From a bacterium (GTDB lineage Bacteria > Auribacterota > Tritonobacteria > UBA1439), in the NCBI GenBank assembly GCA_028716845.1, contig JAQUPF010000004.1, forward strand, positions 128,730-192,729: a stretch of 64,000 nt of DNA. The letters run 5' to 3'. The notes beneath the pieces were generated by a model that was not told the DNA's origin, searched no databases, and saw only the letters and a program-made list of their open reading frames with translations. This document shows, one piece after another, positions 37,535 through 55,948 of this stretch. Every line of letters starts with the position of its first letter. Position 1 is the first letter of the stretch. The translations under genes and the position numbers were made by a program.

Positions 37535-38068
37535 ATGAATATGAAACCACAAGACGTCCTCGTCACACTAAAGCTATTGGCATCGGGATGGCCGGGAAGC
37601 TATGCGGCAATGGGCAAGCAGATAGGCCTGAGCGCCTCTGAAACCCATGCCGCTCTTCGCCGCGCACGTCAGGCTGGATTGATTCATCCGAAGGATAATA
37701 TCCCCAACAAATCGGCGGTGTCCGAGTTCCTTTTGCATGGCCTCAGGTATGTGTTTCCGGGCCATCGCGGCCCGAAGACACGGGGCATGCCCACAATCCA
37801 TGCGGCGCCACCGCTGGTTGCGGAGTTTCGTTTATCATCGTCTTCCGATGAGGATGTACCTGTGTGGCCTGATCCGGAAGGCGAACAGCCCGGCTATGAA
37901 TTCGAACCCTTATGCCGATCCGTGCCGCTTGCAGCCCGCAATGATGCCGGGCTCTACGAATGGTTGGTACTCGCGGATGCACTGCGCGGCGGACGCGCCC
38001 GCGAGCGGGAACTTGCCTCGGGAATCGTCCGAAAGCGTCTCCAATATGAAATCTGCAATACGCATTGA
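37535..38068 (+). CDS. HTH (winged-helix) regulator, AbiEi-like antitoxin candidate
   Basis: The N-terminal wHTH-like region is KPQDVLVTLKLLASGWPGSYAAMGKQIGLSASETHAALRRARQAGLI. It has lower GC and overlaps the downstream NTase gene by 23 bp. Confidence 0.5.
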   Translation: MNMKPQDVLVTLKLLASGWPGSYAAMGKQIGLSASETHAALRRARQAGLIHPKDNIPNKSAVSEFLLHGLRYVFPGHRGPKTRGMPTIHAAPPLVAEFRLSSSSDEDVPVWPDPEGEQPGYEFEPLCRSVPLAARNDAGLYEWLVLADALRGGRARERELASGIVRKRLQYEICNTH

Positions 38069-38756
38069 TGACATCGCAACTGTGGCATTGCGACTGGAAC
38101 CGCTTCGGGAGAAGTGCGTATTCACGGGCGGAGCCATAATAGGCCTCCTCATGGATGACCCGGCCTTGGTCAGCATTCGCCCTACAAAAGATGTGGATGT
38201 CATCGTCGAGGTCCGGACGCGCATTCACTATGCTGATCTTGAGGGACGACTGCGCGGGCTCGGTTTCAAACATGCTATGTCCGAGGGGGCACCTAAATGT
38301 CGCTGGATCATTGACAACATCCGCGTGGATATTATGCCGGTGACCGATCAGACCGGCGAGCTCAGCGATACATGGTTCGAGCTTGCTCTCCGAACGGCGA
38401 CGAAAGCACGTGCCGGCAAAGCTGAAATATGGATGGTGACCGCACCGTGTCTCGTTGCGACGAAACTAGAGACCTTCATAGATCGCGGCAAGGGGGACTT
38501 CATGGCCAGTCACGATATCGAGGATCTCCTAGCCGTCATAGATGGTCGTGAAGCGTTGGTCGAGGAAATCGCCGCCTCATCAGCCGATCTTAGGCATTTC
38601 ATCGCGGACAAAATAGCCGAGCTTCTGGGGAATATGAGGTTCCTTGATAGTCTGCCGGGCCATCTGCCACCCGATGATGCAAGTCAGCGGCGATTGCCCA
38701 TTGTCCATGAACGACTACGGGCAATCGCAGCGTTGGCGACTGGTTCCGACTCCTGA
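38046..38756 (+). CDS. Nucleotidyltransferase, AbiEii/DUF1814-like toxin candidate
   Basis: FTGGAIIGLLMDDPALVSIRPTKDVDVIVEV matches the AbiEii N-terminal GG(T/A)...R.(S/T).D.D motif. It is the second gene of an overlapping pair. Confidence 0.55.
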   Translation: MKSAIRIDDIATVALRLEPLREKCVFTGGAIIGLLMDDPALVSIRPTKDVDVIVEVRTRIHYADLEGRLRGLGFKHAMSEGAPKCRWIIDNIRVDIMPVTDQTGELSDTWFELALRTATKARAGKAEIWMVTAPCLVATKLETFIDRGKGDFMASHDIEDLLAVIDGREALVEEIAASSADLRHFIADKIAELLGNMRFLDSLPGHLPPDDASQRRLPIVHERLRAIAALATGSDS

Positions 38757-40316: not shown

Positions 40317-40740
40317 GATCCCGTTCGCACCCGCGATTATATCAGAAGAGGCGAGACGTTTGATTTCACACTCCGACCGTCGGCAGCTTGCTGATCGACG
40401 GGCCGGCTATCCGGCTGCCTCATGGACGTCCCGAAACAGCGGATAAGCGGAACCTGCTTCCCTGAAGGTTCAGAAACTTATGAGTCAATAGTAGAGGTCT
40501 GACCCTGATTTATTACACCTGCCGCTGCTGCACATGCAAGCCACGCTTCTCAGGTCGGGTGCAGCGTATGGTTAGATTACGCTGTTGTAGAATACTTCCT
40601 GATATAGGCTGATCTAAAATAAGCACCTAGTAAAGCACCCAAGTAAGAACTTATGCTCCAGACAAGAATACAAATAAGCATCTCAAACGAAAACTCAGGA
40701 TACCTGATTAGGATGAATATTGAATAACGGAATTATCTTG

Positions 40741-40770
40741 TTGACAAACCCACCTCCCCCAGGGTATATT
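40741..40770 (+). promoter_or_regulatory. Sigma70 promoter for the transposase (TTGACA, 18-bp spacer, TATATT)
   Basis: TTGACA is at 40741-40746 and TATATT at 40765-40770. The GGAGGTGG RBS is at 40781-40788, before the ATG at 40794. Confidence 0.6.
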
Positions 40771-40793
40771 AGTACCAGAAAATGGAGGTGGCT

Positions 40794-41690
40794 ATGAACC
40801 TGATTGAGATTAGCAGAATGTCGGAGAATGAGGCAAGGGAATACGTCGAGAGTATCCGTTGGCCGCAAGGCCCCGTGTGCCCCCACTGCGGCGACAAGAA
40901 GCGCGCCTATCCGCTCAAGGGCAAGGCGACGAGGTCCGGCGTATACAAGTGCGGGGCCTGTCGGAAGCAGTTTACTGTGACAGTCGGTACGGTCCTCCAC
41001 CGCTCGCATATCTCCCTGAGACAGTGGATTATCGCCTTCCATCTGATGTGCTCCAGCAAGAAGGGCGTCTCGGCCCTCCAACTTCAGCGCGAAATGGGCC
41101 TGAAGTCCTATCAGGCCGCGTGGTTTCTCGCGCATCGTATACGCGCCGCCATGAAGGAAGACCCGCTCGCCTCTCTCCTCGACGGCACGGTGGAGGCGGA
41201 CGAGACTTACATCGGGGGGAAGGGAAAGCCCGGATCGAAGCGCGGTAGGGGCACCTCGAAGATGCCGGTGGTCGCGCTCATATCCCGTAAGGGGCGCGCA
41301 TACTCGAAGCCGGTCGAGCGCGTCAACGCCAAGGAACTGAAGGGCGCGATCCGTAAGATGGTAAGTAAGGATTCCAGGATAATCACCGACGAGTGGAAAG
41401 CGTATCAGGGGATAGGGAGAGAATTCGCGGGCGGACACGAATCGGTAAATCACGGAGAAAAGGAGTACGCCCGCGGCGATGTTCATGTAAACAATGCGGA
41501 ATCTTACTTTGCTTTACTGAAGCGCGGTGTACATGGTATATTTCATCATGTCTCCCGCGAACATCTTGGACGTTACTGCGATGAGTTCTCATTCCGCTGG
41601 AATCATCGTAAAGTATCCGATGGTGAAAGGACGATCGCGGCTATCCGGGGAATCGCAGGGAAGAGGTTGGCATATCAGGCAAGCCGGTAG
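40794..41690 (+). CDS. IS1595-family (ISXO2-like) transposase
   Basis: The N-terminal zinc-ribbon is CPHCG...CGAC. The DDE region is present. The C-terminal family signature is HVNNAESYFALLKRG...EFSFRWNHR. Confidence 0.8.
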   Translation: MNLIEISRMSENEAREYVESIRWPQGPVCPHCGDKKRAYPLKGKATRSGVYKCGACRKQFTVTVGTVLHRSHISLRQWIIAFHLMCSSKKGVSALQLQREMGLKSYQAAWFLAHRIRAAMKEDPLASLLDGTVEADETYIGGKGKPGSKRGRGTSKMPVVALISRKGRAYSKPVERVNAKELKGAIRKMVSKDSRIITDEWKAYQGIGREFAGGHESVNHGEKEYARGDVHVNNAESYFALLKRGVHGIFHHVSREHLGRYCDEFSFRWNHRKVSDGERTIAAIRGIAGKRLAYQASR

Positions 41691-41711
41691 TTTATAAAGA
41701 AGCATCTTACA

Positions 41712-42647
41712 ATGATAAGGCAAGAATACTTATTCAATATGAGCAATGCCATACGCCAGAAATTAGGCAAGTACCAGATTTTTAATATAGATGCTTTTCT
41801 CTGGCTATCGAATGCAAAACCCAATTCTATTCATGCGGTCGTCACTGATCCCCCCTATGGGTTGGTGGAATATACAGCGAAACAACTCGAAAAGAAAAAG
41901 AACGGGAATGGCGGAGTCTGGAGAATCCCTCCATCGTTCGATGGTTGCCAACGCAGCCCCTTGCCGCGCTTCACTATCCTTAATGGGAATGACAAAGAAG
42001 CATTGAGGTCATTTTTCGATAAGTTAGCGCGCGAGCTTTTACGTGTCCTAGTCCCGGGCGCCCATGTATTCATCGCCACAAACCCACTTGTTTCTTATCT
42101 GGTTTATGAGCCGTTCATCTCCAATGGATTCGAGAAGCGAGGGGAGGTTATTCGAGTGGTTCAAACCCTAAGAGGCGGCGACCGCCCTAAAAACGCGCAT
42201 CAGGAATTCCCTGACATATCTGTAATGCCAAGGTCGTGTTGGGAGCCGTGGGGTCTATTTAGAAAGCCATGCGAGGGTAGAGTGCAGGATAACCTGCGCA
42301 AATGGCGGACTGGAGGATTGCGCCGCGTTTCAGATACCGAACCTTTCAAGGATTTGATTTATTCGCCGCCCGCACGCGGAATAGAACGTGAAATTGCCCC
42401 GCACCCATCATTAAAACCGCAGCATTATCTTAGGCAGATTGTCAGGGCAGCGCTGCCTCTTGGCAGCGGAATCATTCTCGACCCATTCATGGGGTCAGGG
42501 TCTACCATTGCTGCCGCAGTGGCGTGCGGTCTTGAAAGTATAGGGCTGGAAGTTAATAATGAGTTCTTTGGAATTGCTGAAAGGGCCATTCCGAAACTCG
42601 CCATTTATAATCCTTCCGGAGACAATAATAATGGTCCGGAATACTGA
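41712..42647 (+). CDS. Beta-class DNA methyltransferase (N6-adenine or N4-cytosine)
   Basis: Motif IV DPPY (VVTDPPYG) precedes motif I FMGSGSTIAAA, a circularly permuted beta-group arrangement. Confidence 0.8.
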   Translation: MIRQEYLFNMSNAIRQKLGKYQIFNIDAFLWLSNAKPNSIHAVVTDPPYGLVEYTAKQLEKKKNGNGGVWRIPPSFDGCQRSPLPRFTILNGNDKEALRSFFDKLARELLRVLVPGAHVFIATNPLVSYLVYEPFISNGFEKRGEVIRVVQTLRGGDRPKNAHQEFPDISVMPRSCWEPWGLFRKPCEGRVQDNLRKWRTGGLRRVSDTEPFKDLIYSPPARGIEREIAPHPSLKPQHYLRQIVRAALPLGSGIILDPFMGSGSTIAAAVACGLESIGLEVNNEFFGIAERAIPKLAIYNPSGDNNNGPEY

Positions 42648-43239
42648 CTTTAATAATTCTGTCCCCTTGCCTCCGGGGCTCGCCATTGCTTCAATAAGGA
42701 AGGCGATAGAATACGTGGAAAGGGAATTGGCTGACTTAGCAGAACTCTATTTTGAGCAAGCGAATGTATTCAGCGCCTTAGTTGGGATATATGCTACTAA
42801 AGCACTTGATGCAAACAGTGTGTATGAAAAGCAGCGACATGCCGATTTGGCGCAACAGCGATTCCCTGATTTGAAAAAGCGCGGAAGCGGTGCAAAGCCA
42901 AGCCCACGAGAATCACTTGAATGCAAAGCGAGTAAAAGACCATGGGCAGTGCAATCGCATTACGACCATTCCGGTTGGTATATTATCTGGCGCTATCTTG
43001 TCGATACAACCTGTTCACTTGAGCGCAATCGCCCGGTAATTATCTGGAGAGTTGATGTTGTCTTCGTAAAGAAGAACGATTGGAAATATGAGGGTAGCAA
43101 GGCAAAAGCCGGCAGAGGTGGAAGAACCCATACTTTTGGGATGAAAAACCCGGCATCCAAGTTAAAAAATGCTGCTGTTTATAATCGCGTAGATGTAAAG
43201 ATCTCTGGAGGGAAAGCTATCCCTCGAAACGGAGGGTGA
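42631..43239 (+). CDS. Putative type II restriction endonuclease partner of the MTase
   Basis: It overlaps the MTase stop by 17 nt. It carries a PD-(D/E)xK-like PRESLECK motif. It has low GC and no other recognisable domain. Confidence 0.4.
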   Translation: MVRNTDFNNSVPLPPGLAIASIRKAIEYVERELADLAELYFEQANVFSALVGIYATKALDANSVYEKQRHADLAQQRFPDLKKRGSGAKPSPRESLECKASKRPWAVQSHYDHSGWYIIWRYLVDTTCSLERNRPVIIWRVDVVFVKKNDWKYEGSKAKAGRGGRTHTFGMKNPASKLKNAAVYNRVDVKISGGKAIPRNGG

Positions 43240-43399
43240 TACAGGAGGATAAGATGGCCCATGAAAAAAGAGAAGGGAAATCACGCCGCCTAAAACCCAT
43301 TTCTCTTCATCCTCTTCCAGTCCAAGATGCCATATCGGCTTTCATTGCCGTTGATCCGAAGAAGATTGAAGAGAGGATGAAACGGGAAAAGAAGCAGGA

Positions 43400-44377
43400 T
43401 TAGATTGCTGGCAGATTATCAGACATAGGTTTTTGAACATCGGCTACTGGAGCCATTGCTTTTAACTTCTCCGAGATTATCCTTTCTCGTTCCATTCTAA
43501 AAGAATCTTGATTGATAACTTCAAGAATTTTTGAAACTGGCACCACAATAGCTATCCCCATATTCAACCGCTCTTCGAGAAGCGCATTATCGGACGTGCT
43601 TGCATCTTCTGATAATTTCGATTCCCAGTGACCGTGCATAAGACCCATCCAATAAAATAGTCTCTCGGCACCCGTTCTAAAAGATTTCCCTATAACGCGA
43701 CTAGCGCCGGTATACAGGAATACTGGTGATCCACTCAGCCCACCAATTGATCTGGCTTCCACCAAATAAGCGTCGATAGGCCCGAGGTCGTCCGTATGTA
43801 CCCGCTCATCTGGCATAAGTGCTATATTCCCAACTCTGACAATGGGGAGATTCTTTTGACGACCATAATGACTTGAAAATAGCCCGGTTAAAAATACCTC
43901 GTCTCCAACTCCAATCCCTTCCGATTTAATTACCTTATCGGTCATAACCATCTCTAGGGGGATAGACATATAGTCGAACCGATCAATCGGGAGCATCAAT
44001 GACAATACTGCTACATCCACAGATTTATCGTTGGGATGGAACATCCAATTTGCTAATGGAGTTGAAACGTATGCGCTTGATCCGGCAGTAGTATTCACCC
44101 TCAACCACACCTGCCCATCCGTGGCATGCTTCTTGACATGTTCTATGACGTGCCGCGCTGTAACAATGTAGGCGAAAAAAATAGAGTTATCTGTTGGGAT
44201 GGAAACCGCAACGAAAAATACAGTACCGGCTAAAGCATATCCATCGCCTACTTTAAAGCAGGCGAATGCCACGCATTTTCGTACCGTGTCCGGAACTTGC
44301 ATGGGATTACGCTCCTCTTCGGCAACGTAATACTGAGGGCATCCCCCCAAACGATAATCTACCATAAGCCTGTTCAT
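43400..44377 (-). CDS. Trypsin-like (S1/chymotrypsin-fold) serine protease
   Basis: The His motif is TARHV and the Ser motif is GGLSGSPVF (GDSGGP-like). GC is about 45%. Confidence 0.65.
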   Translation of the reverse strand: MNRLMVDYRLGGCPQYYVAEEERNPMQVPDTVRKCVAFACFKVGDGYALAGTVFFVAVSIPTDNSIFFAYIVTARHVIEHVKKHATDGQVWLRVNTTAGSSAYVSTPLANWMFHPNDKSVDVAVLSLMLPIDRFDYMSIPLEMVMTDKVIKSEGIGVGDEVFLTGLFSSHYGRQKNLPIVRVGNIALMPDERVHTDDLGPIDAYLVEARSIGGLSGSPVFLYTGASRVIGKSFRTGAERLFYWMGLMHGHWESKLSEDASTSDNALLEERLNMGIAIVVPVSKILEVINQDSFRMERERIISEKLKAMAPVADVQKPMSDNLPAI

Positions 44378-44413
44378 TGTCGTGCTATAATTCCCTATGA
44401 AAACATGGGTTTG

Positions 44414-44698
44414 TTAAGCGGATAATTCCGTTGAATAATATAGCCCTGTACTAAGTACTAAATAGTTCCAAAACGATTTCCTAAGATATGGCTGTCCCAA
44501 ATAGCTAGCCAAACAACTGCCTAAAGCAAAGCATAATGGAAATACTATTAGAAAGATGATCCCGAGCAAAGATTCTGGAGATCTACCAGTTTTCACTACT
44601 ATCGGTCTAAAGATAACTACTTCAATAATTGCGTACAAACTGAGAGAGACAGAAATACCGATAATCAAATACAAGATCAATAAGCATAGCTTCTTCAT
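44414..44698 (-). CDS. Small membrane protein
   Basis: It has 3 predicted TM helices, low GC, and a Lys-Lys N-terminus. Confidence 0.4.
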   Translation of the reverse strand: MKKLCLLILYLIIGISVSLSLYAIIEVVIFRPIVVKTGRSPESLLGIIFLIVFPLCFALGSCLASYLGQPYLRKSFWNYLVLSTGLYYSTELSA

Positions 44699-44784
44699 GA
44701 TTCAATGTAATCTAACGTTCAGGCCGAGACGCGTTTTTATGCGCCAGCATAAATACGTAGTCTCCAGCCTCTGGTTCGACCCTC

Positions 44785-45291
44785 TTATATCAGTCTTGTG
44801 ATCAGAACGATTGCCAAAGCTCCGAGTGCAGCAAGATACGTTTTGGGGGGTAAGCGAAAGCGCATGCCCCACGCGATGCTGATGTATGCCAGATTGAACA
44901 GGACGAGCAGAGCATCGAAGAGCGTACGAAGTGCCTCTGCGAAGAAGCTGTTGACGTCGTCCGGAATGGCACGCAGCAGTGCCGTGAAGCCAAGAACCAT
45001 GAACGCCGCTGCTACTTGGAAGTAGAAGAACTCCTGAGTGCTCAGTCGTGGCTCGGTCCACGCACGGCCCTTCCGAACGAAGTGTCGCCACATCAGAACG
45101 AGGATGAGCCCCCAGAGACATAGTATCAGCCAAGGGGCGAATCGTCCCGCATTGCTGTCTTCGCCGAAGGCAAACAGGATTATGGCAACAAGGGCTGCGA
45201 CCGGAAACACGAGCATGCCGCCACCGACGACGAGGTAGATCGCCATACTTGCTATCGAGTTTGTCTGCCATGTTGTGCGTGCTCGAGTCAT
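44785..45291 (-). CDS. Membrane protein
   Basis: It has 4-5 predicted TM helices. The start is trimmed to MTRARTTWQT. Confidence 0.4.
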   Translation of the reverse strand: MTRARTTWQTNSIASMAIYLVVGGGMLVFPVAALVAIILFAFGEDSNAGRFAPWLILCLWGLILVLMWRHFVRKGRAWTEPRLSTQEFFYFQVAAAFMVLGFTALLRAIPDDVNSFFAEALRTLFDALLVLFNLAYISIAWGMRFRLPPKTYLAALGALAIVLITRLI

Positions 45292-45449
45292 CTTCTCACG
45301 AGGTCGAACGATTACTTGGGTTCGAATTCCTTTTCCGCGAGTGATGATCACAGCAAATGTCTTCCCATGGAAAATATGTTGCGACGGACAATATGAATAC
45401 CTGAAATCAAGTTATATCCAGGAAGAGGCTCCAATCAACGACAGCCTCT

Positions 45450-45690
45450 CTAGCGTAATGGGCGGCCCATGCGAGGCGTCTCGATGGGACCATACGGTTC
45501 GCCCCGCTGCTTCTCCAGCTTCGCCACGAGATCCCGAACGGCCTGATTCACCACGTCCGAGCGGGTCACCCGATCCCACCACGCCACCCGGCGAATCGCC
45601 TCAGCAACGTACGCGGCGAGTTCGATTGTCTGCCGGTACGTCTCGCCCTTGGCCCTCCGCGGGCGGGTCCATCCCCCAGGTTGTCTGACG
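45450..45690 (-). pseudogene. Ribbon-helix-helix (CopG/Arc-like) protein remnant, no intact start
   Basis: The minus-strand translation ...GETYRQTIELAAYVAEAIRRVAWWDRVTRSDVVNQAVRDLVAKLEKQRGEPY has an RHH beta-strand plus two helices. The upstream reading frame is broken. The stretch has high GC, unlike its flanks. Confidence 0.3.
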
Positions 45691-46134
45691 TGTCGCCGTA
45701 TCTTTTCAAGGCATGGCCGGACCGCCGGGGACTTTCCCAGGGAGCGCCTTGAGCGTCATCGAGTGATCCATTGAAATGTCAGCGGTCATACCTGTTATCC
45801 CGTCGGCACCAAGATGGATTGTAAACGACAAATGTACTAATAGTCCAAGGGAAATCAGGGAATTCGCGTTAGTAGAGTATCGGTAATCCGCTATCCTTTC
45901 AGTTTACCGCGATCGGCAGGATCCAGGGGGTCTGCTTGCTTTTGGCTATGTGCTTTCGGATGGTACCATTGAAAATGGGTTGTTACAATCCGAATCGCAC
46001 TCAACGCAAATAGGAAATAGCCGGCGGCAGACCTCTACTATTGACTAGACCATGGTGGAAGATTCAGAAACCCATTAGTCAATTGTAGAGGTCTGATTCT
46101 GATTTTACACAGAAGGGAAAAGGCACGAGCGAGA

Positions 46135-46268
46135 GGATGGAGAAACGGCTGCAGACCGGTGAGGGACTATTCAGCGAGCAATGGCCGTGGCCTGACCTCG
46201 GAATAACCCAATTACGGCGAGCATCCCAAGTCGGCGCTTTCTATTGTTAAGAATAAAGATGTGACCGC
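46135..46268. repeat. Roughly 135-bp dispersed repeat, copy 2
   Basis: It is the paralog of 38787-38925 and sits immediately 5' of the IstB fragment. Confidence 0.5.
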
Positions 46269-46443
46269 AAGCACCATGATGACCTCCAACCGCCCCATCG
46301 AGGAATGGGAGAAGCTCATCGGCGATGTCCCCTCGGCAACGGCCATCCTGGACCGCTTCCTGCACCACGCCGAGATTATCCCGATCAAGGGCATGAGTTA
46401 CCGATTGAAAGATCGGGCTTGCATATCTATCAAGGAAGGATGA
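46261..46443 (+). pseudogene. IS21-family IstB helper ATPase, C-terminal fragment
   Basis: TSNRPIEEWEKLIGDVPSATAILDRFLHHAEIIPIKGMSYRLKDR is the IstB C-terminal consensus. No istA or N-terminal part is present. Confidence 0.7.
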
Positions 46444-46530
46444 TTATCTGATCACTTACTGGCTGATTTTTAAGTAACCGCGAGTAGCTGATTATGATGT
46501 GACCGGTGACATTAAGAGGAGATGACCAAT

Positions 46531-46941
46531 ATGGACATATCCGCAGATGAGATCAAGGAGGGATTGGTCCTGTTCCTCGACCCGGAGATTTTAATCGCTA
46601 AAGGCGCAACGTGCTCAGTGCCAGATAATTATAGGGCGAGAAAGAGTCGGCCCTTTTTATGCATAGATGCAGATTCATCTTCTGGTACCTGTATTCCACT
46701 CTATAGCTCTGATGCTAAGGGCCGAGGACCAATTGAGGAAGATAGCAAAGAGGGAGATGATATATGGATAGTTAGTGACAGCTACTATGACACTAGGCAA
46801 CAATGGAATGCGGTGGCCCATGAAACAATCATAGCTGCTGCTAGGGGAGATCAATCAACTACTGATCTAAGAAACACCGTTACTCCTGAGTGCCTTCGAG
46901 ACATTAAAGAAGATTACAGAATCAGCAATCGCCTGGCATAG
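46531..46941 (+). CDS. Hypothetical protein (low GC)
   Basis: The AGGAG RBS is followed by an ORF of about 136 aa with no recognisable domains. Confidence 0.35.
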   Translation: MDISADEIKEGLVLFLDPEILIAKGATCSVPDNYRARKSRPFLCIDADSSSGTCIPLYSSDAKGRGPIEEDSKEGDDIWIVSDSYYDTRQQWNAVAHETIIAAARGDQSTTDLRNTVTPECLRDIKEDYRISNRLA

Positions 46942-47055
46942 CCAAACCGCCTCAGCATCCAGCAACCCGTTCAGCGTCTCCTCAAACGATCTCCGCACCA
47001 CCCTGTCCAGATGCGCCCGGATCTCACCCTCATCAACCTCAGAAACGCTCTTCAA
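46920..47055 (-). pseudogene. IS256-family transposase N-terminal fragment
   Basis: LDRVVRRSFEETLNGLLDAEAVWLCQA matches the IS256 N-terminal consensus (VEETLNALLDAEADxLC). It is truncated by the low-GC insert and has high GC. Confidence 0.5.
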
Positions 47056-47216
47056 CCCGGCCCCTGTTTCGCTATCCTCTTCACGAGCAGTGCCTCCTCG
47101 CCTGTCGGGCGTGTTGGCTCTTCCACAAACACCGACTAGCAGGAAGCCTGCTCCTTGTAAAGTGCGAATAATAGCGTACTTTGACGTGATTAATCGGGGC
47201 CTGACAATAATACCCT

Positions 47217-48269
47217 CTATTTGTCCTTTTCTGTAGGGTCTGGTGCTTTGTCTCCCGTATTATCTTCTTCCCGTTTCTTTCCTTTATCATCATATCCTAT
47301 ATCGCGATAAAGGTTGTCAAGCGGATGATCTAAACGTCCCAAGATATCTTCGACCTTGCTTGGATAGCCAAAATACTTGCTCCAATCATAAATTCCAGCA
47401 GGCGCTATTAAACTAGGCTGGCTTAATTTATCGAGGGTCTTTTGTATATTTTCTTTCATCCCTTGATCCATCTTAAGTACAGCAATATTTGCCCTCAGAT
47501 TGCCTATCATTCTATTATTTTCCTCCAGCATATTCCGAGATTCGGCACTTCTTTTTTCCAGTTCATTTTTTAGAATTCTAATAAATGATCCCATTTCATC
47601 TGCACTTCCAGCTAATCTGTTAAATATAACCAAGAATTGCTCTAATAATGGTTCACTGATACTATATGGATAACGTATCTGATGATCTATTTCGCTCCAA
47701 CCTTCTTCAAATATTGTTCTCACCTGTATCTCCGCAATGATTTCCGATCCTTTATCGGGGCTCACAGTAATTGTGTAATGGATTGACCTATATCCATAAG
47801 GATGCTCATTAATTTCGCATCCCTTTTCTTTGAATGCTCTAATGATATTTTCTGAATCACCAGATCTCACATTCGCCACTGTTATTTCTTTTAAATCCCA
47901 AGTATTTACTACATAATTGTGAATGTCTTTCCAGTCATTCTTAAAAAGGTGCAATGCCCTGACACCGATCAAATCGAATATTACTTGCCTATAGTTATCC
48001 CGATCAATCGATAAGTTATTGTCTGCAATTTGTTTCCTAATTATCTTGGCTATTAAATGTTCTGGATCCTTTATTCGGAATTTAACTGAATGAACTTGAG
48101 GTATAGCTCTCAAGTTATCAGCAATCGTGTCAGCTTGAGGCTCAAGCAATTCCATATAACTTAGATAGTTCTTTTCTATCTCTTCAAGTTCAGTCCATTT
48201 GAAACCTGTACTTTTGAAATCTTCCAAAGTTATACTATATTTCTTTAAAAACATATTTTGTGCTAACAT
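47217..48269 (-). CDS. RelA/SpoT-domain protein (small alarmone synthetase-like, candidate toxSAS or CapRel-type fused toxin-antitoxin)
   Basis: The PF04607 motifs are VKFRIKDPEHLIAKIIRK, DLIGVRA, GYRSIHYT and EIQVRTIFEEGWSEIDH. A roughly 130-aa C-terminal extension follows. GC is about 40%. Confidence 0.7.
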   Translation of the reverse strand: MLAQNMFLKKYSITLEDFKSTGFKWTELEEIEKNYLSYMELLEPQADTIADNLRAIPQVHSVKFRIKDPEHLIAKIIRKQIADNNLSIDRDNYRQVIFDLIGVRALHLFKNDWKDIHNYVVNTWDLKEITVANVRSGDSENIIRAFKEKGCEINEHPYGYRSIHYTITVSPDKGSEIIAEIQVRTIFEEGWSEIDHQIRYPYSISEPLLEQFLVIFNRLAGSADEMGSFIRILKNELEKRSAESRNMLEENNRMIGNLRANIAVLKMDQGMKENIQKTLDKLSQPSLIAPAGIYDWSKYFGYPSKVEDILGRLDHPLDNLYRDIGYDDKGKKREEDNTGDKAPDPTEKDK

Positions 48270-48397
48270 TTTGCACCTCGCCTATCCTTCTCTCATAGTG
48301 TCTGGTTATATCCCGTTCCTCCGTGGCTGGTTATGACCGGCCGATGACACTTTATCAGTGCCGACATCATCCCCGAAACATAATGCACCCTCCAAGG

Positions 48398-49219
48398 TTA
48401 TTCCACTGGCTCTTCAAGCCCTGTGTTTCTCTTCCAGCGTTCAATAGAAGCACGATTGATCGGAGCGGTAATCATATCTGTTATATCTTTTTCTACACGT
48501 GCAAATCCAGCCTTAGACAGACGCTCTCTTACTACCATCTCTTTGCCACGAGATAATCCCTTTTGATAATGACCTGCAAGGTAATGTGCAAGCCATAGCC
48601 CCCCCTGTGAATCTCCTGCTAATGAGCTATCACTCCAGATTATACACATGTCTGCGTTAGTGAATCGCAACCTCGATTTAAATAACTCAGCTTCATCGCG
48701 ATTCATTCTCCTCGCTGCTTGTAAAATACCATTGAGCTGCCCGCTCAACCTATGAACACTGTCTATGAATATTCTCCTCGTTGGTTTGGGCATTGTCTTT
48801 TGATCCAACACAATCGAGAGACCATCTACGAAATCCTTTGCTATGGCGGATACGGTTGCCTGAGCTATTGCCTGCCCCATGCAGAATTGCCATACCCAGT
48901 TCCTTAATCCTATTCCCTCTTCTGTTAGATAGTGTCTATTAGCCCCAGTAATCAACCTTGTGGCTCTTGCCATCGTATTCATTTTCGAAAGCTTACTTTG
49001 TATTTTATTGCCGTATCCTCTATCTGGATATATGTAAGAAATGTGCGGAAAAGCGTTAAGCTCCTTGATTTTCTTAACAAGCCAATCAACATGTCCATTC
49101 GGTTTATCTATCGTAGGGGGATCGCCTAAGATTGCTACAGTGGCAGCAACAAAAGGGGGGTCGCCATCATTCATCGGCATCGTGCCTGCTTCGTCACCAT
49201 AAATCCGAAGAATAGCCAT
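48398..49219 (-). CDS. DUF3800-family protein
   Basis: The N-terminus MAILRIYGDEAG matches the DUF3800 (y)IDESG start. It has low GC and is adjacent to the RelA/SpoT gene. Confidence 0.5.
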   Translation of the reverse strand: MAILRIYGDEAGTMPMNDGDPPFVAATVAILGDPPTIDKPNGHVDWLVKKIKELNAFPHISYIYPDRGYGNKIQSKLSKMNTMARATRLITGANRHYLTEEGIGLRNWVWQFCMGQAIAQATVSAIAKDFVDGLSIVLDQKTMPKPTRRIFIDSVHRLSGQLNGILQAARRMNRDEAELFKSRLRFTNADMCIIWSDSSLAGDSQGGLWLAHYLAGHYQKGLSRGKEMVVRERLSKAGFARVEKDITDMITAPINRASIERWKRNTGLEEPVE

Positions 49220-49467
49220 GTCTCAACCTGCCTTTCTACTGGTGACAATCGTGATGGCATTATTCCCATAATAGCACTGCTGGCAGCCCTGCATGATGTA
49301 TATGCCCTATTCATTGGATATTCTACCGGATCATGGTGGAGAGAATAAGCAAAGCATTTTAAAGCATTTTGCGTTTTGTCCATTCTCCAATTCAATTTCC
49401 CGCAGCCTGGTTGCAGCCAGGAACACCACCTTGTTTCCGTCAGGAATACTGGCAGCTTCGCATATGT

Positions 49468-52400
49468 TCACTGGGATATATTCAGGCCGAGTTGTTCACC
49501 CTCCTGTTCTTTCGCCTTCGGAGCCTCGCGCATTTCATCCGGGACGGGCGGCATTTCATCGGATCGGAAGCATTCGCCCTCAATGACAGCATTAAGGAGA
49601 TTAGCTTGCTCAGGATAGCATTCGACTGTTGCCTCCAGCACCCAGAGCAGTTCAAGGAGTTCGGTTGTAAACTGACTGGTCCATTTCTCAGGGCGGATAT
49701 CATCGAGGGGGGATGATTTCTTCCCGGCCCCTTTCTTCATGCGATATTTAAGCCATGATCGTACAACCTTGAGTCCCGAAACTTCATACTCGTAAACCTC
49801 GGGTGTGACAGGTAAGAACTTGCCATCGCCTACATGCAGCGTTCGGTTATTTTCTTCATAATGGAACGACTCAGGATAACCAGCAGAGCTGCCGGGGACA
49901 GCCTTCACGCACTTAGCCTTACCGGGTGGGATCTGCCCCAAGCGCTTGCCTTTAGGCACAAAGCGCTCACCGTAAGTATGCAACCACAGTAGTCGCGCCC
50001 CGATATCGGAAATCTTATCGAACAGCATGCCATCCTTTGTAATCGGCACTCTCAGCTCTCGCGTTTCTAGTTCCTTTTGAAATCGCGCGGTAAAGGCTGG
50101 CTGCGCCAAGACTCCATAAAGATAAGCTGCGAAATCCTCCGGCGCTACTTTCCGTATGTACACCTTGCCGAGCTGTTCGAGCAAGCCGGGGAGGATATTG
50201 GATTGCGTTGCGTTTCTTTTCCTGTACAGGGGTACAATATCTCTCCCTCCCCTTCCGGAAAAATAGTGACGATCGGGGATTTCAGCTGCTGATGTTAATG
50301 CTGGACCTTGCCCAAGTTCCAATGTCATCGAACTTGCAAGATAAAGCTGCTTTGGGCCATGAGTGCGCCAGAGATCGGGACGGAGGTAGTCTCCGATACG
50401 ATTGTCCGCAAACATCCATTGTCTATCGAACGAACGATATGCGTAGCGTTCAATCTGCGGCGGGGAGACATTACGTGGTAAATGATTAAGAGGACTGCCA
50501 TCTCCCTGCCGGAAATACAGAAGTGGGTACCTCAATGAAATCTTCCGATCTCGTGTCTCCTTAAAGGCATTAGCCCTATCGTCTGCGACAAGCAACGCTC
50601 GCCACCTTGATTTCAAGGTTTCTATCTCATGGCAAATTGGCCAAGTTCGTTTCATCTCGCAACCAGTATGTTGCCACGGCATAATATCAGTTAAAAGAGG
50701 CCAGTTGAAATAATGGCCCTTCCCCATAGGGCGAAATGGAGCATGCCAATCGTTAAGGCAGGCCTTCCACTCTACTTTGGAATAATCATCGATGGCTTCA
50801 AGCGCAGCAAGCTTGGTCTTGCTATCGCCCTCGATGCGGGAGTAATGGACTCGGGCGGGTTTGTCTTTATTCGCCTTCTTCGCGCGGACAGCGACGGCTA
50901 TGGCGACCGGGGTCTGAATGGCGAAAACGTTTTCGCTTTTTCGCGTACCGCGACCTTCTCCGCCAAGATCAAGAATCCATATCTCTTCACAAATTCGTCG
51001 CATATGTTCCCGCATCCCACAAAAGGCATCGCCATCCAGGTAACTTGATGCGCTGATAAAACTGACCACACCAGGGCATTGCGATTTCTCGTGTTCGAAG
51101 ACCTTCCAGAGCGCCCAGCGCCAGAAATAGACATAGAGATTATAGAGATTCTTGAGGTGGACGCCATGCCCGGCAGCTATGGCAGGATTAATGAAGTCGC
51201 GAAGAATAGAGCGTTTTTCTCTTTCTGATATCCTCGCCTTTGCGCTCGTGATTTTACGTATTTGACCCCTTTTGTCCCGCTTGCGGTCGTCGGGTAAAGG
51301 ATCTCCAAATCGAACCCAACCTCCATAGCGGGCCAGACTATCCTCTCGAGTAATATCCACGGCCTCGTGACGGTCGTAAGGAGGATTGCCCAAGCAGACA
51401 ATGACGGGAACGCTGTTCTTTACTTTGAGCGCCTTTGCGTGTTGCTCCGCGATGGGTCGCAGAAAGAAGGGCAATTGTGGAGGCTCGGCATGGGGGCTTT
51501 CAAGTGTGTCGGTCAGGAATATGTGGGTTCCGTCGGCGGGAAGTGATGCACCACGGTCACTCAGTGCACGGCTGACGCGCAACTCGGTCACAGCGTATGG
51601 ACCGACCATAATTTCGAATCCGAAGATGTTCTTTGCAAGCTCAGTTGCCTGTCCCTTGACGGCCCCTTTGCCCTGCTCAGACTTGACCCGCTCCAGGGCA
51701 TGTTCAATGACACCGAGCAGATAGGTGCCTGTCCCGGCGGCGGGGTCAAGCGTGATGACGCTGGGATCGGCAAAACCCAACGGCTTGTTGAGGCGGTTGA
51801 CAAGAAGATCGTCTATCAAGCGCACCTGGCAGTGAACGACTTCAATCGGTGTGTAGTATGCTCCAGCGTCCTTGCGTAGTTTGGGATCATAAACGGAGAG
51901 GAAATGTTCATAGAAATACAACCATGGGTCCTCAGGACCGATAAATGCGGCAGTGGGAACGGCGGCGATAACGCGGAGAAGTAGATCAAGAGAGGTTGTA
52001 ATTTCGGCGCGTGCGCGATTATCGGTCAGAACTTGGAGTGCACGGGCAAGGAGATTATGTTGCGCCGCGAGCGCCTTTTCAGCGCTGGCGAGTGTTAATG
52101 GTTCGGCTCCTTCACTACGCCCCAGGAGTAAGCCAAAGGTGACGGTTTGGGCATAGGCGTCAGCAAATTGCTCATCAGGCGCATCGGGAAATAGTAATTG
52201 CCGCCAGTCCCTGGCGAGTTCAACCAGCGGCGATGACGGGTCTTTGAGCGCATCTATCACATCATCGCGCAACATCCGGCAGAGTGGTGCGAGCAGAGCT
52301 GCGAACGCCTTGAGGTCGATCTTCCCCTTCCGATCTCTCGGGATGAGCGGTTGCCACAAGAAAAAGTCGCGCAGAAGGTGTTCAAGCGCAGCCGCATTTT

Positions 52401-52851
52401 GTGTGGAAACAGCCTTCTTGCCGTCCGCAGCCACATTGCCGGAGAGTCGCACAATCCTACCAGCAAGTTCACCATTGCGATAAAGCGCCCATTCATTGCC
52501 ATCGGTATAGAGAATATTGGGAATGGCCGAAAAGCGCTTGAATTGTTCGCGGTTATGTCCTTTGAATCGCGTTGCAAACGCGCCGACTCCGGGAGCTTTA
52601 AGTTCGACGTACCCGACGAGCAGCTTCTTGACGTGAACGGCGTAATCGGGACGGCCAAGTCGGTTAGGAAGGCGCGTTTCCCCGATACAAACAATATTCC
52701 ATCCAAGGGCTTTAGCTACGGCTGCCTTAAAGTTCTCGAAAGGGCCCCGCAACTGATCCTCGGGCTCACCGGTAGTGAGCTGTGTCATCTTGGCCTTCAC
52801 GTTGGTCGCGAAGGTTTCCAAGGATTCGCGTATCGAGATGATCTTGCTCAT
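49468..52851 (-). CDS. Type IIG restriction-modification enzyme (MmeI-like: PD-ExK nuclease plus gamma-class N6-adenine MTase plus TRD)
   Basis: The N-terminal PD...ELK is RPDYAVHVKKLLVGYVELKAPG. MTase motif I is LDPAAGTGTYL and motif IV is GNPPYD. There are no helicase motifs. It is 1127-1143 aa depending on start (M at 52899 or 52851). Confidence 0.75.
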   Translation of the reverse strand: MSKIISIRESLETFATNVKAKMTQLTTGEPEDQLRGPFENFKAAVAKALGWNIVCIGETRLPNRLGRPDYAVHVKKLLVGYVELKAPGVGAFATRFKGHNREQFKRFSAIPNILYTDGNEWALYRNGELAGRIVRLSGNVAADGKKAVSTQNAAALEHLLRDFFLWQPLIPRDRKGKIDLKAFAALLAPLCRMLRDDVIDALKDPSSPLVELARDWRQLLFPDAPDEQFADAYAQTVTFGLLLGRSEGAEPLTLASAEKALAAQHNLLARALQVLTDNRARAEITTSLDLLLRVIAAVPTAAFIGPEDPWLYFYEHFLSVYDPKLRKDAGAYYTPIEVVHCQVRLIDDLLVNRLNKPLGFADPSVITLDPAAGTGTYLLGVIEHALERVKSEQGKGAVKGQATELAKNIFGFEIMVGPYAVTELRVSRALSDRGASLPADGTHIFLTDTLESPHAEPPQLPFFLRPIAEQHAKALKVKNSVPVIVCLGNPPYDRHEAVDITREDSLARYGGWVRFGDPLPDDRKRDKRGQIRKITSAKARISEREKRSILRDFINPAIAAGHGVHLKNLYNLYVYFWRWALWKVFEHEKSQCPGVVSFISASSYLDGDAFCGMREHMRRICEEIWILDLGGEGRGTRKSENVFAIQTPVAIAVAVRAKKANKDKPARVHYSRIEGDSKTKLAALEAIDDYSKVEWKACLNDWHAPFRPMGKGHYFNWPLLTDIMPWQHTGCEMKRTWPICHEIETLKSRWRALLVADDRANAFKETRDRKISLRYPLLYFRQGDGSPLNHLPRNVSPPQIERYAYRSFDRQWMFADNRIGDYLRPDLWRTHGPKQLYLASSMTLELGQGPALTSAAEIPDRHYFSGRGGRDIVPLYRKRNATQSNILPGLLEQLGKVYIRKVAPEDFAAYLYGVLAQPAFTARFQKELETRELRVPITKDGMLFDKISDIGARLLWLHTYGERFVPKGKRLGQIPPGKAKCVKAVPGSSAGYPESFHYEENNRTLHVGDGKFLPVTPEVYEYEVSGLKVVRSWLKYRMKKGAGKKSSPLDDIRPEKWTSQFTTELLELLWVLEATVECYPEQANLLNAVIEGECFRSDEMPPVPDEMREAPKAKEQEGEQLGLNISQ

Positions 52852-52964
52852 GCCGATATTGCCTTTGGATCCTTTAGGCAATTCATATCCCGTTAACACA
52901 GAAGATTATCTGTAGAGTATAACAATGCTTCCGAAATCAGGTTCCCAGATTATCCATCGACTGA

Positions 52965-53660
52965 TTACCGTCTCATTGTATCAAGTGTAACCCAATCGCC
53001 AGGAGCCCGCTCGTATCGCCAGAATGTCCACCCGTTGCAGGTTCTTCGTTTACAGGCCGCCGCCGCAGCGAGTGAGGGAGATGTGTATACCTTCCCGTTC
53101 AAGAGAATCGTTCCATCGCGCCGAACCCGCGCCTGGATACGCTGCCCTTTGTGCTTTCCTCGAATTATGAATGGACCTGAATTATATTTCCTCAGTACAG
53201 CGTTCCGCCCCCCCGGGGCTTCTATGAGCTCCTCCCGCTTTTGCGCAACACACGTCTCGCCGAACAGCCCATCAATCCGCTCTTGAAAATCCCGTTTGAT
53301 TTGCTGGCGGAACTTCCGTTGTAAGTTTTCAGAACGGGCGAACTTCCCTTTCTGCTTGTTCCCGGGGGGCTGCACCACGCGCAGGATCAATGATTCGAGT
53401 TCCCTCAGATTGTCACTGCCGATGGTCAGATAGACGGAGAACCGATCCCAGGAGTCCCTGTGCTTGTCCCGGAGATGATGTCTTAACCGGCTGCGAAGGT
53501 TTGTTGCAAGCCCCACATAATAGAGCTTCCCACGCCGATACAACGCGTATACCCCCTGCCGGCGCCGGACATAGTGTCGGATGATATTCAGGTGCTTTTC
53601 CAATGCCTCGCGCGAGATATTCTCAAGATGCTGACACACTAGCTGAGAGTGCTTGGCCAT
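52965..53660 (-). CDS. GIY-YIG nuclease domain protein with a C-terminal DUF4357-like region
   Basis: The GIY-YIG motif is GVYALYRRGKLYYVGLATNLRSRLRHH. The C-terminus has a conserved GWTFW. The start MAKHSQL follows a GGGGGAG RBS. Confidence 0.6.
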   Translation of the reverse strand: MAKHSQLVCQHLENISREALEKHLNIIRHYVRRRQGVYALYRRGKLYYVGLATNLRSRLRHHLRDKHRDSWDRFSVYLTIGSDNLRELESLILRVVQPPGNKQKGKFARSENLQRKFRQQIKRDFQERIDGLFGETCVAQKREELIEAPGGRNAVLRKYNSGPFIIRGKHKGQRIQARVRRDGTILLNGKVYTSPSLAAAAACKRRTCNGWTFWRYERAPGDWVTLDTMRR

Positions 53661-53798
53661 TATCTCCCCCCCGCCTTCAATGCTATCCAACTCTATGATG
53701 GCTATGGATGGAGTAGTTCCCCTGTGGATTTCTCGCCATAACTTGTCCTGTGAATGTGTGCAAGTCAACCGGTCTGTGCTGCTTGCCAGCAATCTCTT

Positions 53799-55808
53799 TC
53801 AGTCAACAGCCGGACCCGCCTCCGGTGACCCCTCTCCCCCATTCTCCTCGGGAGGCATTGGGGGGGAGGCAGCCACTGTATGTGCCGCGGCAGGGAGGTG
53901 AGCCCGGGCGGCCTCAGCCGCTTCCGATTTAAGTCGCTCAGCCTTGCGACGATACTTTCTCGCCGGAGGGTAATTCGGTTTGAGTTCAAGTGCTTTATCA
54001 TAGTCGGCAATAGCCCGATCGTACTCCCCCATATCCTTGTATACATTGCCCCGATGATAATAGTAATACGCGCTATTCGGCCGCAGTGCGATGGCTTCCG
54101 TATAATCAGCGATCGCATGGGGGCTATCACCCTTTCCGTGATATGCCCTGGCCCGGTCCACATAAGCTTGAAGAAAAGTGGGATCCAGTTCGATCGCCCT
54201 GTTGAAGTCCGCGATGGCACTATCATTATCAAGCTGGTTAAGGTGCCAAGAGCCGCGACAGCGAAGCGCTTTCACGTGATTCGGATCAAGTTCAATCGCC
54301 TTGTCGAAGTCCGCAATTGCGCGTGCGCGCTCGCCAATGCGAAGGAGAACGTTGCCACGATTGTAATGAGCATCCGCATATTGTGGGTCTAATGCTATCG
54401 CCATGCTGTAATCGGCAAGAGCCTTCTCATGTTCCCGTTGTTGCACGTGACAGTATCCCCGATTCAGGAAAGAGAGCATATGGTTTGGTCGCAGTTCAAT
54501 CGCCCTGCTGTAATCCGCAATCGCCTTGTCGAAGTCCTCTCTCAGGCGGTGCGCATTGCCCCGGTTGTAATGTGCGGGGTGGCTTCTCGGATCAAGCTCG
54601 ATCGCCTTTGTGTAATCGGCGATTGCCTTGTCCCATTCACGGGCATGGCGGTGCGCAACGCCCCTGCTGTTATACGCCGGGGAGCAATGCGGATCCAGTT
54701 CGATCGCCTCATTCGCGAATGCGAGGGCCCGCGTGTGATCGCCTTTCGCGTTATAGACAAGCGCCATTCCGTTGTATGGATAGGCATAGCGGGGGAAAAG
54801 CTCGATTGCCTTTTCATAGTCCGCAAGGGCAAGATCGTATTCACCTTGCTCTTTATAGAGATTGCCTCGATTATTATAGGCATATGCGTACTTGGGGTTG
54901 AGTTCGATCGCTCGGTTATAATCGGCGAGCGCTTTGTCATACTCCCCCTTGTCCAAGTACGCATTCCCGCGATTGTTGTACACAATGGTATAATCCGCAT
55001 CCAGGTTTATCGCCGCGGTATAATCATCGATCGCCCGATCATTATCCCCCTTCCCCCTGTATGCGCAGCCGCGATCCTTGTATGCCGATGCTCGGGAGGG
55101 ATCAAGCTCTATCAATGAACCATAATCATCGATGGCCTTGTCATACTCGCGCATATCCAAATACACGCCGGCACGGGCACGATAGGGAGTTCTATCCCCG
55201 GGCCTCAGTTCAATCGCCCTGCTGAAATCATCAACCGCACACGAGAAATTGCGCATATTCCTGTATGCCCTGCCTCGACTGATGTAAGCTCTTGGATAAT
55301 CCGGCCTCAAGCCGATGACCGTGCTGTAATCCGCAATTTCCGATTCATAATCCTTTATCCTGCGATATGAAGCGGCACGACTCATGTACGCGCCGATGAA
55401 ATCAGGCTTCAGTGTGATTGAGCGAGAATAATCGTTGATCGCAGATTGATAATATTTCCCGGTCTGAAACAGATTGCCACGAATGGAGTATAGACCAGGT
55501 TCGGCCGGGTTCAGATTGATCGCGGTGTTGAGATCCGCGAGTGCGCGGTCGTAATCACCCTCGGCCATATAAATGAACGCACGAACGCAATATAACCGGG
55601 CATCCTTCGGCTCAAGGGCAATCGCCTTATTGCACATGTCTATCGCACCGGCATGATCACCGTTTAAATGGCAGGCGAAGCTCTGTTTCATGCAGGCTTC
55701 GATCGCGGAGGAATCGCGCCGCGGAATACGGCAGGATGTCACCAGAAGCAGAAGCATCAGGATGGGAAGAACGAGGAGCCACCTTCTGCTACATCCCATT
55801 GCATTCAT
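53799..55808 (-). CDS. TPR-repeat lipoprotein
   Basis: The signal and lipobox LLLLLVTSC are followed by more than 15 tandem 34-aa TPR units (AxxYxxRGxxYxxxGxYDxAIxDY). Confidence 0.8.
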   Translation of the reverse strand: MNAMGCSRRWLLVLPILMLLLLVTSCRIPRRDSSAIEACMKQSFACHLNGDHAGAIDMCNKAIALEPKDARLYCVRAFIYMAEGDYDRALADLNTAINLNPAEPGLYSIRGNLFQTGKYYQSAINDYSRSITLKPDFIGAYMSRAASYRRIKDYESEIADYSTVIGLRPDYPRAYISRGRAYRNMRNFSCAVDDFSRAIELRPGDRTPYRARAGVYLDMREYDKAIDDYGSLIELDPSRASAYKDRGCAYRGKGDNDRAIDDYTAAINLDADYTIVYNNRGNAYLDKGEYDKALADYNRAIELNPKYAYAYNNRGNLYKEQGEYDLALADYEKAIELFPRYAYPYNGMALVYNAKGDHTRALAFANEAIELDPHCSPAYNSRGVAHRHAREWDKAIADYTKAIELDPRSHPAHYNRGNAHRLREDFDKAIADYSRAIELRPNHMLSFLNRGYCHVQQREHEKALADYSMAIALDPQYADAHYNRGNVLLRIGERARAIADFDKAIELDPNHVKALRCRGSWHLNQLDNDSAIADFNRAIELDPTFLQAYVDRARAYHGKGDSPHAIADYTEAIALRPNSAYYYYHRGNVYKDMGEYDRAIADYDKALELKPNYPPARKYRRKAERLKSEAAEAARAHLPAAAHTVAASPPMPPEENGGEGSPEAGPAVD

Positions 55809-55823
55809 TGAATGGATGGAACC

Positions 55824-55948
55824 CGTAGACGTTGTATATATCGCGCTCGGGTCGAACAGGATAGAAACTTATTCGCCCCCGGGGGCTCTGGGGGCGAATA
55901 AGTCCGCATCATCCTGCGGCCGGGGCAGTTGCATAACACGTCTTCTAC
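55824..55948. repeat. PRE copy K, complete about 125-bp palindromic element (type copy)
   Basis: GTAGACGTTGTATATATCGCGCTCGGGTCGAACAGGATAGAAACTTATTCGCCCCCgggggctctGGGGGCGAATAAGTCCGCATCATCCTGCGGCCGGGGCAGTTGCATAACACGTCTTCTAC. The stop codon of the downstream minus-strand gene is the terminal CTA. Confidence 0.85.

Follow-up and report, generated by a model that had tools for sequence, protein, structure and literature searches.

The IS1595 family of insertion sequences (IS) is defined by 8-bp target duplications, a zinc finger, and a DDE domain, and an N-terminal zinc ribbon is typical of all its groups except IS1016 (PMC8101967). IS with passenger genes, termed transporter IS (tIS), are recognized in this family (TnCentral preprint, bioRxiv 10.1101/2021.05.26.445724); the passengers cited for it are transcription regulators (ISNha5) (PMC11891212). 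Here, we analyzed a 64 kb stretch of DNA (the window; all coordinates below are window positions). With a probability of about 90%, its positions 40728–44430 represent a single 3,703-bp tIS of the IS1595 family, ISNwi1 group, which carries a type II restriction-modification (R-M) pair and a serine protease and is inserted in a membrane-protein gene, while repeats lying further out are unrelated debris of a Y1/RAYT-like element. A preliminary description of this DNA had proposed an IS1595 cargo transposon of 5.6 kb; the cargo transposon with a type II R-M pair and a serine protease was found, but with another size and other ends.

Members of the ISNwi1 group with passenger genes are reportedly known from the work of Siguier, Gagnevin and Chandler (2009) and from ISfinder/TnCentral. 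The sizes of such members in ISfinder range from 1.75 to 4.75 kb, and the 3,703 bp of our element fall within this range. The element also shares with them a transposase with a zinc ribbon and a DDE_Tnp_IS1595 domain, the 8-bp duplication, short terminal inverted repeats beginning with (c)GGAATTAT, and non-transposition genes between these repeats. It differs from them in its cargo, a complete type II R-M pair and a PDC-S45-like protease.

Mobile R-M units were reportedly the subject of genome-comparison work by Furuta, Abe and Kobayashi (2010). As in those units, the R-M gene pair is a portable module; however, the vehicle is explicit here, the pair riding on a minimal DDE transposon whose inverted repeats and 8-bp duplication are defined, whereas there it was inferred from insertion/deletion polymorphism. 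With the PADLOC family PDC-S45, the protease shares a nearly full-length match to the hidden Markov model and the organization of a single-gene module inside a defence island, but its location inside an IS1595 tIS appears to be unreported. Literature on IS1595 with R-M, defence, or cargo, and on ISNwi1, yielded nothing on point, and no description of R-M and protease cargo on an IS1595 element, of a conserved small right-end open reading frame (ORF), or of clade-wide defence-type cargo was found in the searchable literature. As far as could be found, the kind of element is known, and the specific cargo is new, as is the clade-wide pattern of R-M/defence cargo. The locus provides a clean, minimal example of a complete R-M system and a candidate defence gene riding a one-transposase IS with defined ends and duplication. 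With a construct of 3.7 kb, the question of how R-M and defence genes hop across distant phyla becomes testable. The analysis also replaces a plausible placement of the boundaries that proved wrong, and it shows that cargo is carried throughout a clade of environmental IS1595 elements, which has a conserved small ORF.

Boundaries, Transposase, and Insertion Site

A pair of 25-bp inverted repeats, left (IRL) and right (IRR), was flagged in a repeat search around the transposase gene and then read base by base (Table 1). The terminal sequences of the element are CGGAATTAT...TTGACAAACCCA, and the end motif CGGAATTAT-N5-TTGACAAA is conserved at both ends of its relatives. These relatives were delineated in 80 genome loci and in earlier loci; 47 inverted-repeat pairs were called. 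After removal of a spurious call and of one member of a near-identical pair from the same genome, ~45 credible, distinct elements remained. The preliminary description had proposed looking for an 8-bp target duplication, and a perfect one, TTGAATAA, was found on both sides of 40728–44430. It had also considered that closer inverted repeats might delimit a simple IS of ~1 kb: closer repeats do exist, but the 3.7 kb between them also hold the R-M genes and the protease. The gene order is IRL, transposase, methyltransferase, restriction endonuclease, small conserved ORF, protease (opposite strand), and IRR; methyltransferase, endonuclease, and protease genes are thereby located between the inverted repeats, as passenger genes of a tIS are.

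In silico deletion of 40728–44438 yielded a continuous 136-aa ORF on the minus strand, resembling a four-helix membrane protein; the element is inserted at TTGAATAA within this gene, duplicating 8 bp. Two membrane proteins had been counted among the cargo in the preliminary description. The ORFs exist, but both genes sit outside the IS, and the 94-aa "membrane protein" is the interrupted target and not cargo, because the deletion restores the 136-aa ORF. The possible ribbon-helix-helix (RHH) remnant, also listed as cargo, lies outside the IS as well. Its frame (45470–45690, minus strand) lacks an in-frame start codon and is preceded by stop codons in the same frame; a VapB_antitoxin hint (E 0.069) makes the RHH assignment plausible, not established.

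The transposase is intact, with full-length domains, as had been claimed. It matched Pfam DDE_Tnp_IS1595 (1e-39, positions 2–153 of 153), Pfam Zn_ribbon_IS1595 (2.3e-15, residues 14–63), and NCBIfam transpos_IS1595 (220.6 bits, cut-off 75). The start at 40794 is located downstream of the Shine–Dalgarno sequence GGAGGTG; a 302-aa reading of the gene, for which an exact look-up gave nothing, was rejected in favour of this start. A relative with 72% identity (P0007) is named "IS1595 family transposase ISNwi1" by NCBI. The ends of the element begin with cGGAATTAT, fitting ggnnatTAT, which we take to be the ISfinder end consensus of ISNwi1.

The TTGACA-18-TATATT promoter reported previously was also recovered, its -35 box lying inside IRL (Table 1). 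A -35 box in IRL together with a -10-like hexamer was present at 33 of 45 left ends of the relatives versus 7 of 45 right ends; the left-end promoter is a trait of the related family. An inward promoter in IRR serving the protease gene was considered but found no support: the consensus scan gave no minus-strand site in IRR, and a -10-like box was seen at only 7 of 45 right ends. An anti-Shine–Dalgarno hairpin, formed by the inner IRL and the ribosome-binding site of the transposase gene, was predicted with modest z-scores in the window and in L002, L004, and L005 (L numbers denote loci or contigs from other genomes or metagenomes) and was absent from L030 and L036; we regard it as a hint.

Table 1. 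Coordinates of the tIS, its target gene, the Y1/RAYT-like remnants, and the adjoining island genes.
Feature	Position	Strand	Evidence or remark
Left target-site duplication copy, 8 bp, TTGAATAA	40720–40727	.	Identical to 44431–44438; abuts the IS ends
IRL, 25 bp, CGGAATTATCTTGTTGACAAACCCA	40728–40752	+	21/25 positions match IRR
IS-borne promoter: TTGACA (-35, inside IRL), 18-nt spacer, TATATT (-10)	40741–40770	+	11/12 consensus matches
DDE transposase of the IS1595 family (putative ISNwi1 group), 298 aa, N-terminal Zn ribbon	40794–41690	+	Pfam, NCBIfam; protein identical to NCBI MDD5556551.1
Beta-class type II DNA methyltransferase	41712–42647	+	Pfam N6_N4_Mtase 6e-16; PADLOC MTase_II PDLC03215 4.4e-123
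Type II restriction endonuclease, 202 aa, PD-(D/E)xK fold	42631–43239	+	Predicted fold; 17-nt overlap with the methyltransferase 3' end
Family-conserved small ORF, 49 aa, motif RLKPISLyPL..E.A.rAf..VdP followed by a basic tail	43254–43403	+	jackhmmer
Chymotrypsin-fold serine protease, 300 aa	43400–44302	-	PADLOC PDC-S45 3.5e-17, nearly full length
IRR, 25 bp, TGGGTTTGTTAAGCGGATAATTCCG	44406–44430	-	96% identical right end in the related copy L008
Right target-site duplication copy, 8 bp, TTGAATAA	44431–44438	.	Abuts IRR
3' part of the interrupted membrane-protein gene (insertion target)	40577–40727	-	In silico excision restores the ORF
5' part of the interrupted membrane-protein gene	44439–44698	-	Now a 94-aa ORF terminating inside IRR
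Solo right end of a Y1/RAYT-like element: remnant of the last nine codons (KVQKLMSQ and stop) with terminal repeat AGTCAATAGTAGAGGTCTGACCCTGA	40464–40508	+	Aligns with the right ends of Y1 elements in L017, L024, L018
Gene-less mini-copy of the Y1/RAYT-like element	46028–46102	+	Left end 46028–46046, start remnant ATGG, last nine codons, right end 46077–46102
RelA/SpoT-domain protein	47217–48269		
273-aa protein, no assigned function	48398–49219		
Type IIG R-M enzyme, 1,143 aa	49468–52899		PADLOC E = 0
Protein with a weak GIY-YIG match and a RAMA domain	52965–53792		GIY-YIG 22.1 bits, cut-off 22.6
TPR protein, 669 aa	53799–55808		

Restriction-Modification Pair, Protease, and Small ORF

The beta-class methyltransferase overlapping a PD-(D/E)xK-like endonuclease, as reported in the preliminary description, was borne out by the domain match, the overlap of the genes, and the restriction-endonuclease fold (Table 1). 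The methyltransferase (MDD5556552.1, named "DNA methyltransferase" by NCBI) has the beta-class order of motifs in its translation, with DPPY N-terminal and FxGxG (FMGSGS) C-terminal; judging from DPPY, the modification would be m6A. The adjoining endonuclease ORF is a separate gene, in which both the nuclease fold and the catalytic motif are present, as in a type II R-M system. Fold searches were needed for the endonuclease and the protease, because sequence searches against PDB gave no significant match for either of them. Homologues of the endonuclease (~3,000) are distributed over many phyla and have a near-constant length, ~202 aa among 120 listed. The methyltransferase–endonuclease pair was found without any IS, in a chromosomal context, in L010–L015, and it occurs in unrelated contexts and phyla at 73–88% protein identity; it is a portable two-gene module, also found without IS.

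The trypsin-like protease of the preliminary description was supported by the predicted structure and by the catalytic residues: H51, D96, and S190 are invariant among 42 homologues, and the AlphaFold model (predicted local distance difference test, pLDDT, 91.4) was matched by Foldseek to Deg/HtrA/thrombin with a probability of 1.00. The Pfam Trypsin_2 score (22.4 bits) is under the cut-off of 27.6. NCBI calls a 325-aa form of this protein with the start at 44377.

Homologues of the small ORF were detected by jackhmmer in 39 of the 47 delineated relatives. All of them share the strand of the transposase gene, and in 23 of these elements the ORF is located ≤102 bp from the right end. The homologues are ~45 aa long (e.g., L004 4947–5132, L037 9863–10057, and L026 11503–11661). 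No model for this ORF was found in Pfam, NCBIfam, or PADLOC.

We propose that the Zn-ribbon/DDE transposase would bind the 25-bp inverted repeats and move the whole unit. The promoter with the -35 box in IRL would transcribe the genes of the transposase, methyltransferase, and endonuclease and the small ORF as one operon, along which the first two genes are separated by 21 nt, the next two overlap by 17 nt, and the last two are separated by 14 nt. The R-M pair would restrict incoming DNA and could kill cells losing it, so stabilizing the element, and the protease is a candidate single-gene defence effector.

Related Elements in Other Genomes

The closest relatives (L002, L004, and L005; 73–79% transposase identity) have the same ends around a transposase gene and other genes, and the same ends were also found in genome loci with transposases at 45–66% identity. 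In all, the transposase has roughly 8,000 homologues. Perfect 8-bp duplications were present at the equivalent boundary in 37 of the ~45 relatives. A related tIS with the duplication AATTCTAA is that of L034 (Hyphococcus sp. ECK-19); this strain, which unlike nearly all the other loci surveyed carries no label as a metagenome-assembled genome, is probably a cultured isolate. The elements are 1.7–5.0 kb long; therefore, every delineated relative carries cargo. Ends, 8-bp duplication, left-end promoter, and small ORF are family traits common to the ~45 relatives, which have other cargo.

A second, 5'-truncated copy of the tIS was found in L008, with the same methyltransferase, endonuclease, small ORF, and IRR at a DNA identity of 80.7%. 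The position of the protease is taken there by other DNA, and no surveyed relative encodes the protease of the window element; the small ORF and IRR enclose a variable slot.

Two inverted copies of a related 3,785-bp tIS, which differ by 1 nt and are located ~4 kb apart, were found in a metagenome-assembled genome of Acidobacteriota (CBDFMZ010000001.1, ~1.168–1.180 Mb; L038 7934–11718 and L040 7934–11718). Their flanking octamers are swapped (AAAAGAAA/TCTTAAAA versus TCTTAAAA/AAAAGAAT), a pattern expected after an inversion between both copies. The presence of two near-identical copies in one genome speaks for the mobility of such elements. When plasmids were searched with the transposase of the window element, only relatives at ≤47% identity were obtained.

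The cargo of the relatives comprised 72 proteins from 44 elements, 13 of which were DNA methyltransferases (8 N6_Mtase and 5 N6_N4_Mtase); seven of the eight N6_Mtase proteins matched PADLOC type IIG models. Mrr_cat matches were found in four cargo proteins, and in L004 and L005 the nuclease domain is fused to an N6_N4 methyltransferase. Other domains in the cargo were PIN, HipA_2, SocA, Schlafen/AlbA, NYN, DUF3800, Beta_protein, and HNH. The ISNwi1-like clade may be specialized in shuttling defence and addiction genes on a fixed chassis, with the small ORF as an undescribed second IS-encoded factor; we advance this tentatively and give it somewhat less than even odds. Such a chassis may consist of IRL with a built-in promoter, the transposase, cargo slot 1, the "SLYPL" ORF (~45 aa), an optional cargo slot 2, and IRR.

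Outer Repeats, Alternative Explanations, and the Adjoining Island

The preliminary description had taken perfect 20-bp inverted repeats for the termini of the transposon. These repeats are real, but they are not transposon ends: the 20-mer GAGTCAATAGTAGAGGTCTG at 40482–40501 has its inverted partner at 46028–46047, not 46029–46048, and complementarity is perfect over 19 nt (40483–40501 versus 46028–46046), the 20th base being mismatched. The third, direct copy also exists (46076–46095) and has one mismatch; it begins 28 nt past the inverted copy rather than the 26 nt given. The outer AGTCAATAGTAGAGGTCTG repeat is not due to chance, since the 19-mer has three copies in the window versus 0.00 expected in shuffles. 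The direct repeat extends to 48 nt with 85% identity (40464–40511 versus 46058–46105).

The 19-mer was found in nine metagenome contigs. Two of these contigs, L017 and L024, encode a 336-aa protein whose gene has one copy upstream, in minus orientation, and another, in plus orientation, across its stop codon (AGT CAA TAG); the encoded protein matched Pfam Y1_Tnp (1e-13 and 7e-12) and NCBIfam REP_Tyr_transpos (REP-associated tyrosine transposase; 68.8 bits, under the cut-off of 80). Both direct copies in the window keep the last nine Y1 codons and align with the right ends of L017, L024, and L018; no Y1 gene is present in the window. The mini-copy at 46028–46102 folds as a hairpin (DNA fold energy -18.4 kcal/mol, z-score -5.4), and a similar doublet was found in L018. 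The outer 20-bp repeats are debris of a Y1 (HUH) RAYT-like element, unrelated to the IS1595 element. A Tn3-like or IS21-like end had also been considered for the outer repeat but was dropped once the Y1 gene had been found between its copies.

REP/RAYT and REPIN elements are said to have been described by Nunvar (2010) and by Bertels and Rainey (2011). The outer repeats resemble them in having a Y1 HUH transposase gene between inverted copies of a short GTAG-containing repeat, gene-less inverted doublets folding as hairpins, and solo copies. Unlike REP/RAYT, the Y1 protein is 336 aa long, has a DnaA-like C-terminal region, and scores under the NCBIfam RAYT cut-off. Three copies of the repeat are present in the 64 kb. 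The C-terminal region of the Y1 protein (L017 171–1181, L024 647–1657) resembles the DnaA C-terminal domain (TIGR00362, E 3e-5 to 6e-5). Just downstream of the Y1 mini-element, a 5'-truncated C-terminal fragment (~50 aa) of an IS21-family IstB ATPase is encoded on the plus strand at 46261–46443 (Pfam IstB_IS21 1e-16); the Logan contig L001 (9,886 bp) stops at ~46302, inside this fragment.

A 5.6-kb IS1595 cargo transposon (40482–46048), bounded by the 20-bp repeats and also carrying two membrane-protein genes and the RHH remnant, would account for the real, non-chance 19-bp inverted repeat and for the drop in G+C content near 40.4 kb, but we consider it extremely improbable. The conserved ends of this transposase family and the 8-bp duplication lie further in, whereas the outer repeats have no flanking duplication (AACTTATG on the left versus AGACCATG on the right), and other metagenomes have this repeat on both sides of a Y1 transposase gene. 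The 5.5-kb interval from 40501 to 46028 is flanked by a right end on its left side and by a left end on its right side and therefore lies outside both copies, and one of the membrane-protein genes assigned to the cargo is the interrupted target. Nor do the repeats bound the low-GC segment, as had been stated: host DNA has a G+C content of ~68%, and low-GC DNA spans ~40.4 kb to ~55.9 kb. The latter also bears on the other reading offered earlier, in which the direct repeats of 38–48 bp (40464–40511 and 46058–46105) would be attL/attR of an integrated island. The identity of these repeats and the location of the left copy at the GC transition fit such an island, but the island reaches 10 kb past the right copy, and its two edges share no repeat ≥11 nt. 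Moreover, 7 of 48 positions differ between the copies, each copy holds remnant terminal Y1 codons and aligns with right ends of Y1 elements elsewhere, no integrase was found between them in Pfam, PADLOC, and NCBIfam domain searches, and no tRNA gene is present in the window. We give this reading almost no credence.

It is also very unlikely that the inner element is a dead fossil, in which R-M and protease genes resident in the island would have become trapped between unrelated or decayed IS ends. Such a fossil would agree with the single copy seen, with the inverted repeats differing at 4 of 25 positions, and with a cargo G+C content (45–50%) unlike that of the transposase gene (~60%). However, the two copies of the 8-bp duplication are identical, excision in silico cleanly restores the target ORF, none of the domains of the intact transposase is shortened, and the order transposase–methyltransferase–endonuclease–small ORF with the same IRR recurs in another metagenome context (L008). 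The small ORF, which marks the right-end module of the family, sits downstream of the R-M pair, as in the relatives.

Several points weigh against the reading of 40728–44430 as a tIS of the ISNwi1 group with R-M and defence cargo. The element is seen only once in the window. No homologues of the restored 136-aa target protein were returned by a search, and hence no empty site was found. L002 and L004, two of the closest relatives, have no target duplications. The assignment to the ISNwi1 group is putative, being based on the NCBI name of one relative and on what we take to be the end consensus. The endonuclease has no match among Pfam, NCBIfam, or PADLOC models, and its structural model is of moderate confidence (pLDDT 73.7). 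PDC-S45 is a candidate defence family only; it is mentioned in one paper, and no experimental evidence for the family was found.

The whole region is situated at the left margin of a low-GC defence island of 15 kb. The remainder of the low-GC DNA (46500–55900) resembles a defence island in its gene content, including the type IIG R-M enzyme and the RelA/SpoT-domain protein listed in Table 1. To the left of the element, a 339-aa ORF (37737–38756, plus strand) is located in a patch of ~56% G+C and has a weak match to AbiEii (type IV toxin; E 1.3e-4), just under the cut-off.

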